Positions 4,680 through 56,879 of a stretch of 64,000 bases of DNA are shown piece after piece. The stretch is from positions 20,572-84,571 of the forward strand of contig JAZAAK010000014.1 in NCBI GenBank assembly GCA_036138175.1, in the 5' to 3' direction. Source of the stretch: Thermoplasmatota archaeon. Lineage in GTDB: Archaea; Thermoplasmatota; Poseidoniia; Poseidoniales; Thalassarchaeaceae. The first letter of the stretch is position 1, and each line of letters starts with the position of its first letter. The notes under the pieces were generated by a model, which was not told the origin of the DNA, did not search any database, and saw only the letters and a program-made list of their open reading frames with translations. The translations under genes and the position numbers were made by a program.

Positions 4680-5896
4680 ATACCCCAGTATCGATTGCTA
4701 CCGTCATCATCTGTTTCCGCAGTAACTGAATCAATTGCAGTCTTCAGAAGATAGTAGAATACAATCGCGATAATTGGGAAGAACCAGGTGTCAGATACAT
4801 TGCCTGCAGTAATGTCGTAACCTTCACCACCCAACTCAGCTAATGTTACCTCAATAACAGCCTTTGTAATCGAATAAACCACTGCTCCAAGTCCTACCAG
4901 TATCAAACTTTGACCTGTGAATGACCCTTCCTTCCAACGTAGAACACCAAGGGAAAGAACGAATGAGAAAGCGGAGACTAGAATCCACGTTAATGCTTGA
5001 TCAATTGCAATTACCCAAACCGCAAAATCTCGATTGACTGCGTCTAAGTCGAAACTGTCAATTCGACGGAATGTGTCCAAAACATAGGCATTTAATTCTG
5101 CAGGGTTGCCGTAGAAAACCGAATAGAAAGTTAAGATTGAAAACAACACTGAAACAATGGATAACCCCCATAACAAAGAAGACCAAATTCCTCCAGTTGC
5201 ACTTTCTCTCATGTCAATCATTAACCGCTCCAATTGGTGTTCCCAACCTAATCCCTTGGCAAGAATCCAGATTCCTATAATCAATGGCATTGCACCGATT
5301 AGAACAGCGCCATTTGGTAAAATCAAGCCGAGTCCAAAGATAATCAAAAACAAAGCAGCAGGAACGAGTAATCGCGCCCTCCAACGAGGGTCTTCGATTG
5401 CCTTGGCGACGTAGTAGTAAGTACTCTCAATTCCCTTTGATTGCCTCACAATAATCTTCTCAACGTGATCGACCCTTACTCTAGATGTTAGGATTGGTAG
5501 TGACGCTTCATCATCTGCTCCATCGGTGACTAACACGGCTGTATCCGGTTGAAATTCCTGAATCACTTCGTCGAGTTGGCTCGCAATCGCTCGGTCTGAC
5601 CGAGGGCCAACTCGGACATCACCAGTCAGAATTGCAATTTCAATTTCATCTTCGCCATCATTCCTCTCACTCAATCGGTCGTGATGATGAAGGGCTCCTA
5701 GAATGGCGTTTGTATCGGACTCTTCAGGGTCAGCAATACCTAGTTTTAGGGCCGCAGTCAAGGTCGCTTTACGACCGATTACTGGCCCCCTAATTCCAGC
5801 TTTAACTCCAAGATCATTGTCTCTGTCAATGGTGATAACGAGTGTCCGCACCATACTGGAAGCCTCCGTTGCGATGTGCAATGAGGCCTTCCCCAT
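4676..5896 (-). CDS. DUF373-family archaeal membrane protein
   Basis: N-terminus MVRTLVITIDRDNDLGVKAGIRGPVIGRKATLTAALKLGIADPEESDTNAI matches the conserved DUF373 N-domain. Several TM helices follow. Confidence 0.7.
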   Translation of the reverse strand: MGKASLHIATEASSMVRTLVITIDRDNDLGVKAGIRGPVIGRKATLTAALKLGIADPEESDTNAILGALHHHDRLSERNDGEDEIEIAILTGDVRVGPRSDRAIASQLDEVIQEFQPDTAVLVTDGADDEASLPILTSRVRVDHVEKIIVRQSKGIESTYYYVAKAIEDPRWRARLLVPAALFLIIFGLGLILPNGAVLIGAMPLIIGIWILAKGLGWEHQLERLMIDMRESATGGIWSSLLWGLSIVSVLFSILTFYSVFYGNPAELNAYVLDTFRRIDSFDLDAVNRDFAVWVIAIDQALTWILVSAFSFVLSLGVLRWKEGSFTGQSLILVGLGAVVYSITKAVIEVTLAELGGEGYDITAGNVSDTWFFPIIAIVFYYLLKTAIDSVTAETDDDGSNRYWGI

Positions 5897-14172: not shown

Positions 14173-15774
14173 ATGGCCAAACATCGGGCGGGCGACCGTC
14201 GCATAATCAGTATCAGCATACCAGAAGAGCTTGCAAGGAAGCTAGACAGAAGGGTCGGGAAGGGCCGAAATGATGGTAGATCCGCAACAATAACAAAAAT
14301 GATACAAAACGGTTTGGAAACTGAGCAAACCGTAGCAATACAAACCCCAGTTAGCGAGCAAAGAAGCGCATCTGGAGTCACAGGTGAAATCAGAATCGAA
14401 AAAGACACCATGGGAGAGTTAGAAGTCCCAGCAGATCGATACTTCGGAGCGCAAACCGCTCGCTCTCTAATCAACTTCGATATAGGTACTGACACGATGC
14501 CGCCGTCAGTAATCAGAGCCTTCGGGATTCTAAAACAAGCGGCGGCAGAAACTAATGTTGATCTCGGCCAATTGGACCCTCAGATTGGCGCTCTAATTTC
14601 TTCTGCTTGCGATGAAGTAATCTCTGGCTCATTGGATGAACATTTTCCGCTTCGAGTTTGGCAAACGGGTTCGGGGACACAAACCAACATGAATAGTAAC
14701 GAAGTAATTGCTAATCGAGCAATAGAGATGGCCGGAGGTGAATTAGGTAGCAAATCACCCGTGCACCCTAATGATCATGTAAATCGCGGCCAATCCAGCA
14801 ATGACACTTTCCCAACAGCAATGCACATCGCAGCCGCCGAGGAAATCCACCATCGATTATTGCCTGCGGTTAGATTACTACATAATGCTCTGGCAACAAA
14901 GGCGGATGAGTTTGAAAATATAGTAAAAATCGGCCGAACTCACTTAATGGACGCAGTCCCACTTACTCTTGGTCAAGAATTCGGCGGCTATGTTTCCATG
15001 TTATCATCTGATATTCAACGAATTGAAGCCGCTTGGGACGATTTGCTACAGTTAGCTCTGGGTGGTACAGCAGTTGGAACGGGCCTAAACACCCATTACG
15101 AATTCGCCGACAAAGTAGCCGATAGAATCGCCGAGAAGACTCAATTACCATTCGTCTCGGCTGAAAATAAGTTTGCTCAATTAGCGGCTCATGATGCAAT
15201 CGTAGCAGCCTCAGGAGCACTCAACACTCTCGCTGTAAGTCTAATGAAGATTGCAAATGATATTCGTTGGATGGGTTCAGGGCCACGCTGCGGATTTGGT
15301 GAATTATCTCTACCAGCCAATGAACCAGGCTCGAGTATCATGCCAGGAAAGGTGAATCCAACTCAATCCGAAGCTATGACAATGGTGTGCTGCCAGGTAA
15401 TGGGTAACCACACAGCGATTAGCGTCGGAGGCAGTCAAGGAAATTTTGAACTCAACGTCTTCAAACCTTTGATGATCTACAATTTACTACACAGCACTAG
15501 GTTGCTCGCGGACACTTGTAGGGCCTTTACCGAGAAATGTGTTGATGGGCTTGAAGCCAATGAAGGAGTAATCGCTTCTCATCTTGAGAATAGTTTGATG
15601 CTGGTCACAGCTCTGAACAATCACATTGGATATGATAGCGCTGCAAAGATTGCAAAACACGCTCACTCAAGTGGTTCTACACTAAGGGAGTCAGCGCTTG
15701 AACTTGGATTAGTCACAAACGATCAATTTGACCAATGGGTGAAACCTAGAGAGATGATAGGCCCTAAAGAGTAG
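14173..15774 (+). CDS. fumC: Class II fumarate hydratase with an in-frame N-terminal ribbon-helix-helix (CopG/Arc-like) domain
   Basis: Fumarate-lyase signature [17 protein letters not shown] and [18 protein letters not shown]. Homology to FumC begins at [23 protein letters not shown]. The preceding ~70 aa contain [21 protein letters not shown], a beta-strand/helix RHH pattern. No stop codon separates them. Confidence 0.8.
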
Positions 15775-15775
15775 T

Positions 15776-15975
15776 CTAACTGGAGTTAGTTCTGAACTAA
15801 CGAAATCATACATTGAAGGGAGAAAGGCTCCGCAATGATTGATAATTAGATGGAATGGGGCTCAGCCGTACTTTGGTACAAGGTGGGAGCAGCAGGGGGT
15901 TCTGCACATGGGGGAGCATCCCCCCCTGCTATCTCCGCAGGGTCCGGTTCCATCCGGGCTTGCGCCCTTTTTTTC
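15776..15975 (+). ncRNA. Candidate structured RNA element (3'-UTR structure or small RNA). It has two alternative hairpins at the fumC stop, a long interrupted G/C stem, a CCGG hairpin and a terminal GGGC-ttgc-GCCC stem followed by T7
   Basis: Inverted repeats read directly. These are ctaac-tgga-gttag / gttagt-tctga-actaac (15776-15801), ggagcagcaggggg...ccccctgctatctcc (15886-15937) and guccgg-uuccau-ccgggc. The T7 run lies at 15968-15974. No Rfam family was recognised. Confidence 0.2.
15954..15975 (+). terminator. GC stem (gggc-ttgc-gccc) followed by TTTTTTT
   Basis: Seen directly in the sequence. The oligo-T is consistent with archaeal termination signals downstream of fumC. Confidence 0.4.
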
Positions 15976-15984
15976 CCGGGTAGA

Positions 15985-16545
15985 TGACTACATTGCTCCG
16001 AAGAGCCTTTTCGTCGTTTCCCGCTTCTTCGAGGATCGCTCCCCGTTTCTGCGTTTCCATTTCCCTCCCCGGCTCTCACCGGTTTGTTCTTTGGAATGAG
16101 TGCCGGTCCTCCACGCGTCTCCGCGCTCTTGTTCCCGCCGCGTTTCCCTCTGGTTTCTTTTCCCCTTCCTTGCGTCCAGTTTTTGTCTTCCTTTGTTCCC
16201 CGCAGATTCGCCTCAAGCTTTTCCCATCTCTGGTTCTCTCGCTCTTCGCTTATGCACTCACGGCCTGGTTAGTTGGCACGGTATGCGTTTTCCCTGCCTA
16301 AGCAGTGCGGTTGTGTTTTCCCCAACTTTCCCTGTTGCTTCCTTCCCCTTCCTTTCGTCCGGTTTTCTCCACCTCAGTTCGACCGTATCTCCCCTGGCCC
16401 AAGTGCCAAGTTCGATCATCCCCGGTCCCCTTGCGGTTTCCGGTTCTACCACCCCGAGTTCGGGGTTCGGTTCTGTGGCCCGCGGTGTTTGCCGAAGCTC
16501 GCACCACACCACTCTCCCAGAGCGGCATCTTTGGTCTGAACGGCG
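15985..16545 (+). repeat. Long strand-asymmetric polypyrimidine (C/T) tract. It is GC-rich, low-complexity and non-coding
   Basis: Sampled 60-nt lines contain 46-51 pyrimidines out of 60 on the + strand (77-85%). All six frames give overlapping short ORFs with low-complexity translations (P/S/F/L-rich on +, G/E/R/K-rich on -) and none is credible. Confidence 0.6.
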
Positions 16546-16635
16546 GAGGCACATAAACATTTCGCTAAATGAGGTACTGTGGACCGGAAATAGGGGTCTA
16601 GGGATGTTAATTTCCACTGCATCCCAGGCCGAGAA

Positions 16636-17679
16636 TTACCGATTTCTTAACATCCTTAGACGAGCTCGAAGATCTGATTTTTCAGAATATTCTTCAGGCT
16701 CTTCTTGATGTGAATTTATTCTTCTCTTCATAACTTCAGATTCTACAAAGTAGACTCTTCCCTGGTCATCTGCGAGTACTATTCTATTGAATGATGAATC
16801 CATCTGTCGTAACCTAGAATCATGGGATATTTTATTCGATATTTCGCCAATTATCATTATCCAAACATTCATTCCATCGAAGGAAGATGCCCAACCATTA
16901 GTTTCGATAATTTCGACCGCATCAACAGAACCAGGTAGTTTTTCTGATACGGCTTTCATCGAGATGCTACCATCTTCATGACCAGAAATCCAGCCATTGG
17001 GACTAGAAGCAATCGAGGTAATCAACGATCCCGCCTCGAGTACCGATTCATCCAATGAACTCAAGGAGCCATCAGCGTGTCCAAAAATCAAATCTTTATT
17101 TTCTCCAGAACCACAGGTGACTGGACTGTTTGTTGGTAGCGCGTTATGCTCGACAGGGGCTTCAGGGCGAACTCTGAGATAACCGCACCTAGGTCGCCCT
17201 AAACCTAGAACAATTCCTCCAGAACCATCCGAAGAAATATGCCAAGCACGTTCAGCGACTACCCAACGTTCCAATTCATTTCCCAATTTATCGAATCTCC
17301 AAATGGTGGATTCGATGAAGTCGGCGACCTCTAACTCGTAAACTGATGAGGTCGCCCAGATATTCCCATCCACTGCTAATACATAGTCACTTGCTCCTTC
17401 CAATTTTTTATTCCAAAGAAGCAACCCATTCTCTATGTCAACTGCATGAAGAGAATTAGATGCTGCGACATAAACGCTGCCTGAATCTACAGAGATATCA
17501 GAAATCGGGCCGCTAATTGAAACTCTCCAACGTTCAACTCCGCTGGAAGCATCCCAGGAAACAAGTAATCCATCGTGCGACCCAGCGAATAGTAAATCCT
17601 CGACTAGAAGTAATGCGGAACAGGAGCTGAAAAGGTCTCGCACATAGGACGAGATAGCCTCAAGGGAAAGTCCGGCCAC
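16636..17679 (-). CDS. PQQ-like beta-propeller repeat protein
   Basis: Repeated ...DG.LYA.DA.TG...W pattern (LLVSWDASSGVERWRV, LHAVDIENGLLLWNK) typical of PQQ/BamB-like propellers. Confidence 0.6.
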   Translation of the reverse strand: MAGLSLEAISSYVRDLFSSCSALLLVEDLLFAGSHDGLLVSWDASSGVERWRVSISGPISDISVDSGSVYVAASNSLHAVDIENGLLLWNKKLEGASDYVLAVDGNIWATSSVYELEVADFIESTIWRFDKLGNELERWVVAERAWHISSDGSGGIVLGLGRPRCGYLRVRPEAPVEHNALPTNSPVTCGSGENKDLIFGHADGSLSSLDESVLEAGSLITSIASSPNGWISGHEDGSISMKAVSEKLPGSVDAVEIIETNGWASSFDGMNVWIMIIGEISNKISHDSRLRQMDSSFNRIVLADDQGRVYFVESEVMKRRINSHQEEPEEYSEKSDLRARLRMLRNR

Positions 17680-56402: not shown

Positions 56403-56879
56403 CTATGATTCGTACTCGTTCCTCTCACTTGGTTCTTCACTGAAGTACTGGATGAACTCATACTCATTATTGTCATGATCGAAGAAGTAGTATCTGTGTC
56501 TGTGAGGGTGATCTAGGTAGGTCGCTCCTTGTTTGTAACCAGCCTTAATCATGCGCTCAGCTAAAGCCTCTCCATCGCTGACCACGAATCCCATGTGGTT
56601 CATCCCAGGATGAACGTACGGCTGATGTGGCCCTTTCTCAGTAGCTCCACGATCTTCTATGCAAAGGTAAGAATCCTCAGTGCCAATATGCACCCAGCGC
56701 TGTGCTTTCTCCCCTCCTCCTTCTCCTCTGATACTGAATTCTGGCATTGCAGTTAGAAGAAACTGGATGGTCTCATCCACGTCTGTGGATGTCATGTTCA
56801 GGTGCTCTAGGAATGGCTTCATGGAATGTTGAGGGGCAATCCGCCTTATGTTGTCATCGGTATCCATTGATGCAATCAC
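56403..56879 (-). CDS. Glyoxalase/bleomycin-resistance/VOC-family protein
   Basis: Paired beta-alpha-beta-beta-beta modules with His/Glu metal ligands (HIGTEDSY..., HMGFVVSD...). 158 aa. Confidence 0.65.
   Translation of the reverse strand: MIASMDTDDNIRRIAPQHSMKPFLEHLNMTSTDVDETIQFLLTAMPEFSIRGEGGGEKAQRWVHIGTEDSYLCIEDRGATEKGPHQPYVHPGMNHMGFVVSDGEALAERMIKAGYKQGATYLDHPHRHRYYFFDHDNNEYEFIQYFSEEPSERNEYES

Follow-up and report, generated by a model that had tools for sequence, protein, structure and literature searches.

A large structured noncoding RNA predicted between a propeller gene and fumC in Poseidoniales archaea

Results

Between fumC and a convergent beta-propeller gene, the 64,000-nucleotide stretch of archaeal DNA analyzed here (from contig JAZAAK010000014.1; hereafter, the window) carries a pyrimidine-rich tract at positions 15985-16545. 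This tract is very probably the template-strand view of a gene for a large structured noncoding RNA (ncRNA) that is read from the minus strand; that the locus is a structured RNA gene of some kind we regard as at least as secure. The RNA measures about 800 nt in the window and about 700-1100 nt in relatives. The best-supported interpretation of the comparative data is that it would represent a new class of large structured ncRNA that was already present in the ancestor of Poseidoniales (marine group II archaea). The locus is more conserved than the neighboring housekeeping gene, maintains no reading frame, and contains covarying base pairs from which the strand can be read. The 5' domain is conserved and comprises a terminal hairpin, a near-invariant GCCGCUC/GAGUGGU hairpin, and a multi-helix junction. 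The middle is variable, with hairpin arms that have purine·purine internal loops (tandem G·A type) and very stable tetraloop caps. The 3' domain is again conserved and ends in a long bulged hairpin, GCGGAG...CUCCCA.

Composition, extent, and position of the tract

A sequence-only reading had singled out the tract for its composition, which indeed lies far outside chance. On the plus strand it is 9.8% A, 35.7% C, 21.4% G, and 33.2% T. The pyrimidine content of 68.8% corresponds to z = 4.7 relative to all other 561-nt segments of the window (mean 0.494, SD 0.041, maximum elsewhere 0.599), and the A fraction is 0.098 versus 0.272 +/- 0.031 elsewhere (minimum 0.184). GC content is above the window average, as had been noticed (55-60%, with 57% over the tract, versus 46.7 +/- 3.3%), and the three 60-nt lines quoted for their 46-51 pyrimidines contain 46, 51, and 50. 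The figure of 77-85% C/T applies to single 60-nt lines and not, as had been claimed, to several hundred nucleotides; the best 300-nt segment within the tract is 74% pyrimidine. Uninterrupted pyrimidine runs are short, the longest being 19 nt and the next 18 nt. A 25-nt unbroken pyrimidine run at 56705-56729 (CTTTCTCCCCTCCTCCTTCTCCTCT) exceeds any run in the tract, and its sequence is unrelated to the RNA modules described below. Tandem Repeats Finder reported no arrays, and the head-to-tail, constant-period arrangement of tandem repeats or CRISPR is absent; the dispersed module copies number only two, 24 nt each and 183 nt apart.

The flanking genes are fumC (14173-15774, plus strand) and, convergent with it, a PQQ_2-type beta-propeller gene (16636-17679, minus strand) followed by an M32 carboxypeptidase gene, in agreement with the location first proposed. 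Based on FumC matches, for which the best relative is in a metagenome-assembled genome (MAG) at 90% protein identity and the next are in Poseidoniales/Thalassarchaeaceae MAGs at 73-79%, the window derives from Poseidoniales. In several related MAGs with genome GC contents of 43-57%, the region downstream of fumC is likewise A-poor, pyrimidine-rich, and 55-60% GC. Positions 15827-16615 of the window align by blastn with the nearest MAG (L002) at 86% identity over 799 nt, and there are long partial alignments with L003, L004, and L005. The feature is therefore ~800 nt long, and the ~560 bp originally delineated are its central part. The whole conserved block extends from about 15821 to 16657 (nhmmer, a single minus-strand match in the window at 16657-15821).

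A syntenic element of Poseidoniales

To collect the family, metagenome contigs were scanned with a pattern derived from two invariant 3' motifs, which returned at least 120 stretches, each with one copy of the element by nhmmer. Together, metagenomes and MAGs contain the element in single copy and at the same place in at least 125 loci. Among the matches listed, 96 copies are full length (708-1053 nt); the mean RNA-sense composition of full-length copies is A.29, C.22, G.34, and U.14. Fifty-three distinct representatives at <94% identity were used for structural analyses. The shared gene order is M32 peptidase, propeller gene, and element on one strand, convergent with PPIase and fumC on the other. 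Again among the matches listed, the propeller gene occurs in 89 loci and is missing from none with >900 nt of upstream room, and fumC occurs in 112 loci and is missing from none with >1500 nt of downstream room.

The same flanks and element recur in >130 independent contigs (ENA, JGI, NCBI, Tara, and Logan assemblies), which shows conservation and synteny between fumC and the propeller gene and speaks against an assembly chimera, a possibility that the sequence-only reading had left standing. Similar tracts spread through the genome, which that reading had also considered, are not borne out either: the window has a single copy, as does each locus. Runs of N occur within or beside the RNA gene in MAG scaffolds (L004, about 2070-2470; L006, about 2489-2589 and 2404-2767). 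In L006 there are two covariance model (CM) hits, reflecting a duplicated 3' part that adjoins the N run, an assembly artifact. Internal repeats of the RNA gene appear to break or mis-join MAG assemblies.

The propeller protein family is small (126 clusters), and all organism names given by the sources are Poseidoniaceae or Thalassarchaeaceae. Next to propeller homologs of only 28-46% identity, from both families, every context fetched has a gene-free gap of 790-1200 nt before the convergent fumC, and the gap persists where the outer neighbors differ. These distant gaps contain a homologous 5' domain (nhmmer E values of 1e-10 to 1e-15), the GAGUGGUG motif in nearly all cases, and the GCGGAG...CUCCCA 3' element in all. 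Because this holds in both families, the element is ancestral to Poseidoniales and vertically inherited in place, and the RNA gene is predicted to occupy the same spot in most members of the order. A viral origin was rejected: a 15-mer scan of IMG/VR returned 84 matching stretches (80 loci), none of which has the element by nhmmer.

Conservation without a reading frame

Compared with L002, the RNA element is 84.5% identical at the nucleotide level, versus 75.9% for fumC (90% as protein) and 59.5% for the propeller gene. The GC content of the element is buffered, ranging from 0.515 to 0.619 while the flanks range from 0.435 to 0.644 (slope 0.42). The idea of an rRNA-like constant GC is only partly true, as element GC is buffered yet correlated with flank GC (r = 0.88).

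The tract had been called noncoding from the sequence alone, and the homologs bear this out. Pairwise length differences are spread evenly modulo 3 (1456/1440/1565), and the 202-aa plus-strand pseudo-open reading frame (ORF) requires a frame switch in relatives of 84-90% nucleotide identity. Its translated identity does not exceed its nucleotide identity, the opposite of fumC (90% amino acid versus 76% nucleotide). Thus, none of the hallmarks of a protein-coding gene (a kept frame, indels in threes, protein identity at or above DNA identity) is found among the homologs. Long ORFs on both strands arise only from a scarcity of stop codons, the sense strand being poor in U and the antisense strand poor in A. 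Gene callers have placed ORFs of 63-289 aa on the element, differing in length and strand between assemblies, and no Pfam family is recorded for any of them. Such spurious ORFs include 16100-16708 (plus strand) in the window, L001 1859-2467, L294 3784-4209, L296 3677-4546, L297 3495-4136, and L204 5515-5706. Consequently, the RNA gene appears in protein databases as unrelated "hypothetical proteins"; the database homologs that a pseudo-ORF has, an outcome that the sequence-only reading had named as evidence for a protein, exist only because the RNA is conserved.

Base pairing and strand

For 68 pairs predicted by RNAalifold across the 53 sequences, 97.6% of positions are paired, versus 91.6 +/- 0.2% in shuffles and 38-51% when the partner is slid by 1-3 columns. 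Over the whole RNA, 31 pairs are altered on both sides (242 such cells), and none of 500 shuffles reaches the observed values. The 3' hairpin could be compared across 32 distinct sequences, including the deepest lineages, using a CM-guided alignment, which was used in place of MAFFT alignment A2 of the 3' element because the latter misplaced stem gaps in deep lineages. Here pairing is 96.6% versus 83.7% (48-60% when slid), and 14 of 16 pairs are compensatory, again matched by 0 of 500 shuffles. Hairpin stems are also swapped wholesale between clades beneath conserved UUCG/GNRA loops; examples of the replacements are GGGC-GCAA-GCCC, CCGCC-UUCG-GGCGG, CUAGUC-UG-ACUAG, and CCUGGGCC-UUAG-GGCCCAGG.

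The strand follows from the wobble pairs. In the minus-strand sense there are 301 G:U cells but only 13 A:C cells, which assigns the RNA to the minus strand. At two pairs none of the 53 sequences departs from G·U, and these would become A-C mismatches if the plus strand were read. Consistent with this, the CM of the 3' hairpin (R1) scores 88.3 bits on the minus strand and 17.3 bits on the plus strand at 15882-15939, and the distant homolog L208 folds with z = -8.05 in the sense and -2.43 in the antisense orientation. The pattern is that generally expected of structured ncRNAs, with compensatory substitutions beyond controls and a strand assignable from G·U versus A·C. It also points to the unusually purine-rich minus-strand transcript that the sequence-only reading had raised as a conditional idea.

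Anatomy of the RNA

In the window the whole RNA gene spans about 800 nt on the minus strand (15820-16620, from the blastn alignment and nhmmer block, with the exact 5' and 3' ends inferred), and all features below are given in that sense. The first hairpin (16584-16617) has a GGAAAU/AUUUCC stem and a conserved loop, GACCCCUA; GAA, ACC, and UUCC are invariant in the 53 sequences. Distant lineages keep its stem, and between L089 and L132 a G-C pair is exchanged for C-G. An inverted repeat of 15 nt (16596-16610/16647-16661; 93% complementary) pairs the last propeller codons with the loop of this hairpin. The repeat is kept in the window's clade (L002, L179, L166, and L088) and not in other clades; it may serve in processing, as a stem, or in regulation, as a palindrome. 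The conserved single-stranded motif GCGAAA..UUUAUG (16552-16565) follows, present in all lineages including L204, L206, L208, L298, and L006, and then the near-invariant hairpin UGCCGCUC-loop-GAGUGGUG (GCCGCUC/GAGUGGU; 16507-16527; helix 1), in which 8 pairs are 100% paired and two positions are G·U in 52-53 sequences. Next is a UUCG-capped hairpin (16482-16507; helices 2-3), which differs in its stems between clades and at one pair is GC in 30 sequences and AU in 21. Three hairpins of the multi-helix junction, CCCCGAACUCGGGG, CCGG..GCAA..CCGG, and UUGGCACUUGGGCCAG, occupy 16393-16465 (helices 5-10), where several pairs occur as 3-4 standard types.

The middle region begins with purine module 1 (16337-16362), CCGGA-C-GAAA-G-GAAGG followed by GGAAGGAAGC, which is direct repeat D1 and has a GGA/AAG internal loop under a GNRA loop. 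Purine module 2 (16153-16179) is CUGGA-C-GCAA-G-GAAGG followed by GGAAAAGAAAC. Four tetraloop hairpins lie within 15995-16126 (helices 13-15, all with changes on both sides): GCGCG-GAGA-CGCGU at 16113-16126, CCGG-UGAGAG-CCGG at 16069-16082, GGGGAGCGAUCCUC at 16031-16044, and GGCUC-UUCG-GAGC at 15995-16007. Invariant AUCUACCCGGG and a variable hairpin (GGGC-GCAA-GCCC in the window) occupy 15956-15985 (helices 16-17); in relatives the hairpin sequence is replaced and the pairing kept.

The 3' domain (15882-15947), modeled by CM R1 and rich in compensatory pairs, comprises invariant CCGGACCCUGCGGAG, the long bulged hairpin, and CACC. Written out, the hairpin is GGAG..GCAGGGGG, then ..GC-UCCCCCAUGU-GC..GAA, then CCCCCUGC..CUCC, ending in CUCCCACC. 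The 3' trailer (15819-15879) has motifs conserved across clades, namely a GUAC-CAAA-GUAC hairpin at 15868-15879 and a conserved CAAUCAUUGCGGAGC..CUCC hairpin at 15819-15841, and probably includes the RNA end or a terminator. Pairing of the 3' hairpin loop with G-rich sites was sought by eye in distant homologs, but the partners are inconsistent between L206 and L208, and we make no claim for it. Candidate long-range contacts are GGG (16479-16481) with CCC (about 15939-15941) and the C-rich loops with the GGGG modules.

Purine modules and the origin of the skew

The modules have the form C-Y-G-G-A-[C-GNRA-G]-G-A-A-G-G, with GGAAGG-type runs after the hairpin. In a census, the closing pair was C-G in 102 cases and G-C in 15, with 0 mismatches, and the loops were GCAA, GAAA, GUAA, and CUUG. 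As read from the sequence, the internal loop is a symmetric 5'-GGA/3'-AAG (3x3 purine) and does not have the 3-nt bulge of the K-turn/L7Ae motif. There are two modules in the window and 0-6 in relatives, and expansions by roughly 10-nt purine repeats account for the length range of the family. The GNRA-capped modules and GGAAGG-type runs make the RNA purine-rich and U-poor, and hence the plus strand pyrimidine-rich and A-poor. The arms are remodeled between lineages, with GNRA/purine modules in one clade and UUCG hairpins in others. L206 is ordinary in composition (A.26, C.24, G.27, U.23), and in distant homologs the middle region strings together UUCG-capped hairpins whose internal loops are 5'-GA/3'-AG and 5'-GAA/3'-AAG. 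The purine skew thus belongs to the window's clade and not to the whole family; conservation extends to base pairing and tetraloops but not to the purity of a strand. The common theme across the family is a conserved 5'/3' core with hairpin arms remodeled by lineage, tandem purine·purine loops, and ultra-stable caps. Such core-plus-expansion architecture is the behavior of known RNAs of this kind.

Candidate transcription signals

Across 52 homologs the AT fraction peaks at -30 to -26. In lineages with an intergenic spacer, TATA-like boxes (TTATTTTTT, AGATATTT, and TTAATATTA) occur about 24-30 nt upstream of the first conserved CCAGUGGAA. In the window, a candidate TATA-like A/T-rich box, TTAAGAAAT, is located in the last propeller codons (16642-16650, minus strand), ~25-30 nt upstream of the first conserved RNA nucleotides. 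Downstream, oligo-T (>=5) is found within 110 nt in 13 of 50 relatives, versus a 4.2% background. From these features we infer a candidate promoter and terminator for the RNA gene; a scan for bacterial-type promoters and terminators was uninformative for an archaeon. In one deep clade (L206 5040-5075, L208 5050-5075, and upstream of the RNA in L301), two tandem copies of the conserved 5' motif CCA(G/A)UGGAA lie immediately downstream of the A/T-rich box. The copies might not belong to the RNA but instead form a repeated protein-binding site at the promoter.

Searches for known RNA families

No known RNA accounts for the element. Rfam 15 (4227 models) gave no matches at gathering thresholds over the whole 64-kb window. 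At E <= 10 over 15700-16700 there were four chance-level matches of 16-19 bits (miRNA, snoRNA, sRNA, and lncRNA models), and at E <= 5 the distant homologs L206 and L208 gave chance matches only. ARAGORN found no tRNA or tmRNA genes in the window. The failure of the sequence-only reading to match the tract to rRNA, RNase P, signal recognition particle (SRP) RNA, or any tRNA is thus upheld by CM and tRNA searches. Covariance models of OLE, GOLLD, ROOL, and HEARO did not match the window, L206, or L208, and a search of open full-text literature returned no description of the RNA.

Archaeal RNase P RNA was considered specifically and set aside, as no RF00373-type match was found at E <= 10 in the window or E <= 5 in L206 and L208. 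A string resembling RNase P CR-V, GAACCCCC (the GAAC-CCCCC strand), pairs locally, ~25 nt away, within the 58-nt 3' hairpin, unlike RNase P, in which helix P4 joins segments distant in sequence, and GGAAAAGUGCUGCUCC of L208 was dismissed as a CR-I because other lineages do not have it. Archaeal SRP (7S) RNA was likewise rejected: there is no Rfam match, the element is 700-1100 nt versus about 300 nt, and the likeness to helix 8 is superficial. The helix-8-like modules are absent from distant homologs.

Neighboring proteins

The propeller protein was considered as an RNA partner, but this role is unsupported. The protein has an acidic pI (4.4-5.0), and lineages without the RNA retain both its basic C-terminal RLRxLR tail and the adjacency of the propeller gene and fumC. 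FumC of Poseidoniales has an N-terminal extension of about 70 aa (14173-14385 in the window), with bacterial matches starting at residue ~60-74, and aa 12-48 have a sub-threshold Pfam match to a ribbon-helix-helix domain (RHH_1/CopG, E = 0.0046). A DNA-binding domain fused to a tricarboxylic acid cycle enzyme would be unusual.

Discussion

Several observations weigh against an independent RNA gene with a conserved role. No RNA gene separates the propeller gene from fumC in L008, L011, and L040, where the two genes abut with a gap of about 15 nt in L008 (L008 4039-4054, L011 about 5597-5607, and L040 about 1680-1693). These lineages are two "Poseidonia sp." MAGs and one 33%-GC MAG, and CM and nhmmer searches found no copy of the element within the 5.7-10 kb examined around these loci. 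The RNA is therefore dispensable or relocated in some Poseidoniales. The L132-type clade shows no A/T-rich box, and read-through from the propeller gene may serve there instead. For the window sequence, the gain in folding over shuffles is marginal (z = -1.58 sense, -0.50 antisense), which we attribute to the few possible pairs that a purine-rich RNA offers, and this statistic was not used as evidence. The 68-pair structure was derived from the alignment on which it was evaluated and the 3' alignment was fitted to its model, so both tests lean toward structure; the slid controls and the compensations in deep lineages mitigate this circularity. Lastly, the transcription, ends, and abundance of the RNA are predictions from sequence, as is its function, and nothing indicates a specific one.

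The most serious alternative, which we nevertheless judge unlikely, is that the element is not a gene of its own but belongs to the propeller mRNA, as a long structured 3' untranslated region (UTR) or a 3' end processed from it, and works in cis as a stabilizer, a terminator, or an insulator between the two convergent genes. The first conserved hairpin starts only ~15-20 nt past the propeller stop codon on the same strand, the 15-nt inverted repeat couples the last propeller codons to the first-hairpin loop in the window's clade, and the L132 clade lacks an A/T-rich box. However, ~800 nt of covarying structure, at 84.5% identity compared with 59.5% for the upstream gene, far exceeds the needs of a terminator or insulator. 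In addition, TATA-like boxes are found at the right distance in lineages with a longer spacer, and lineages without the RNA retain the convergent pair of genes 15 nt apart. Titration of a protein, or of the ribosomal anti-Shine-Dalgarno sequence, by GGA, GGAG, and GGAAGG motifs in the manner of the CsrB/RsmZ sponges seems less plausible still. It would suit the variation of the purine modules from 0 to 6 and the roughly 10-nt purine repeat expansion in some lineages, but the modules are clade specific. Distant homologs have UUCG hairpins and no purine skew, which rules out the modules as the conserved function. Moreover, it is stems and internal loops, not hairpin loops, that contain the GGA motifs, and CsrA is a bacterial protein.

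Explanations that dispense with an RNA altogether have very little to recommend them. The sequence-only reading had proposed a long homopurine·homopyrimidine tract prone to triplex (H-DNA) structure, and an H-DNA, triplex, or R-loop element between the convergent genes would fit the strong strand asymmetry and the two near-mirror pyrimidine runs of 18-19 nt (CTTCCTTCCCCTTCCTTTC). This we reject as highly improbable, since there is no long unbroken mirror repeat: the runs are short and interrupted, a longer one lies elsewhere in the window, and the element is kept in homologs without purine skew. Selection, moreover, acts on base pairing and accepts G·U in the sense of a single strand, a pattern that an element working as duplex DNA would not produce. 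Equally improbable is a coding gene whose low-complexity product would be rich in G/E/K/R (minus strand) or in S/P/F/L (plus strand). The long stop-free stretches in several frames and the annotated ORFs in several assemblies invite this reading, but those ORFs are inconsistent in length and strand between assemblies, frames shift among close relatives, and translated identities do not exceed those of the DNA. Indels that are not in threes, compensatory pair changes, and the lack of any Pfam family in the gap ORFs point the same way, and we reject a coding gene. An assembly chimera or artifact, for which the N runs in or beside the element in two MAG scaffolds (L004 and L006) might be cited, is negligible in likelihood given the recurrence of the element with its flanks in independent assemblies.

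If the element is indeed a gene for a structured ncRNA, a promoter-like A/T-rich box of its own, ~25-30 nt ahead of the first hairpin, would drive transcription of the RNA, which would accumulate as a stable, trans-acting molecule. The conserved 5'/3' core would carry the function, be it protein binding, RNA binding, or catalysis, and the arms would be lineage-specific scaffold or expansion elements. By our assessment, a scaffold or ribonucleoprotein (RNP) role has about an even chance, other roles are a lesser possibility, and a ribozyme is the least likely of these. The last, in which the core would form the active site, is doubtful but has points in its favor: the size, the many tetraloop-capped helices with variable peripheral arms, and the near-invariant unpaired core nucleotides (GAGUGGUG, CCGGACCCUGCGGAG, GAAC, and CUCCCA). 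A conserved core with variable peripheral arms is the pattern of RNase P RNA and group I/II introns. Speaking against catalysis, there is no Rfam ribozyme match, no candidate substrate, chemistry, or processing signature, and some lineages are without the RNA at the locus. More speculatively, and only as a tentative proposal, the RNA, at ~800-1100 nt, could be the first of a new class of large "ornate" archaeal RNAs, whose core acts as a ribozyme or as the hub of an assembly (RNA-only or RNP) and whose arms are remodeled in each lineage.

Besides rRNA and RNase P RNA, no other large RNA with an intricate fold is known to us to be conserved throughout an archaeal order. The bacterial counterparts (OLE, GOLLD, ROOL, and HEARO) each led to new biology. 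The hosts, marine group II archaea, are uncultured and globally abundant plankton of the surface ocean. The RNA is well suited to study, having a fixed genomic address, deep natural variation from which to deduce structure, and, in the Poseidonia-like genomes that lack it at the locus, naturally occurring "deletion" lineages. A practical side exists as well: current annotation lists the RNA gene as various "hypothetical proteins" on one strand or the other, and the repeats within it appear to break MAG assemblies.

Comparison with known systems places the element closest to large ornate RNAs of bacteria, although resemblances to other classes exist. Like RNase P and SRP RNAs, it is purine-rich, with a conserved core, lineage-variable peripheral helices, and GNRA/UUCG-capped helices; unlike them, it matches no model and is missing at the locus in some members of the order. 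It shares with the CsrB/RsmZ sponge RNAs a variable number of copies of a short purine motif in one RNA, but here the repeats are clade-specific additions to a structured core and the motifs lie outside hairpin loops; to our knowledge, no CsrA exists in archaea. With H-DNA mirror repeats it has in common a strand-asymmetric composition and short near-mirror runs, but the runs are at most 19 nt and conservation follows RNA base pairing rather than strand purity.

OLE RNA of Firmicutes offers a closer parallel, being a structured ncRNA of >600 nt that is restricted to one lineage, chromosomal and single copy, found in a fixed neighborhood, and rich in conserved unpaired nucleotides, and whose function likewise could not be deduced from sequence. 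The two have no sequence or structure match. OLE belongs to another domain of life and resides in an operon with protein partners (OapA and others), whereas here the sole same-strand neighbor encodes the acidic propeller protein, and this protein is kept unchanged where the RNA is missing. Phages or prophages typically carry GOLLD and ROOL, near tRNAs; in contrast, the Poseidoniales RNA is chromosomal and syntenic, is absent from the viral contigs scanned, and has no Rfam match. Overall, the closest kind would seem to be the large ornate bacterial RNAs (OLE, GOLLD, and ROOL), by analogy in size, complexity, and unassigned function alone. GOLLD and ROOL are large ornate bacterial and phage RNAs that form RNA-only homo-oligomeric cages (PMC12286853). 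The Poseidoniales RNA is of the same size class and has a similarly "ornate" multi-arm architecture, and by analogy its tetraloop-rich arms could mediate higher-order contacts.

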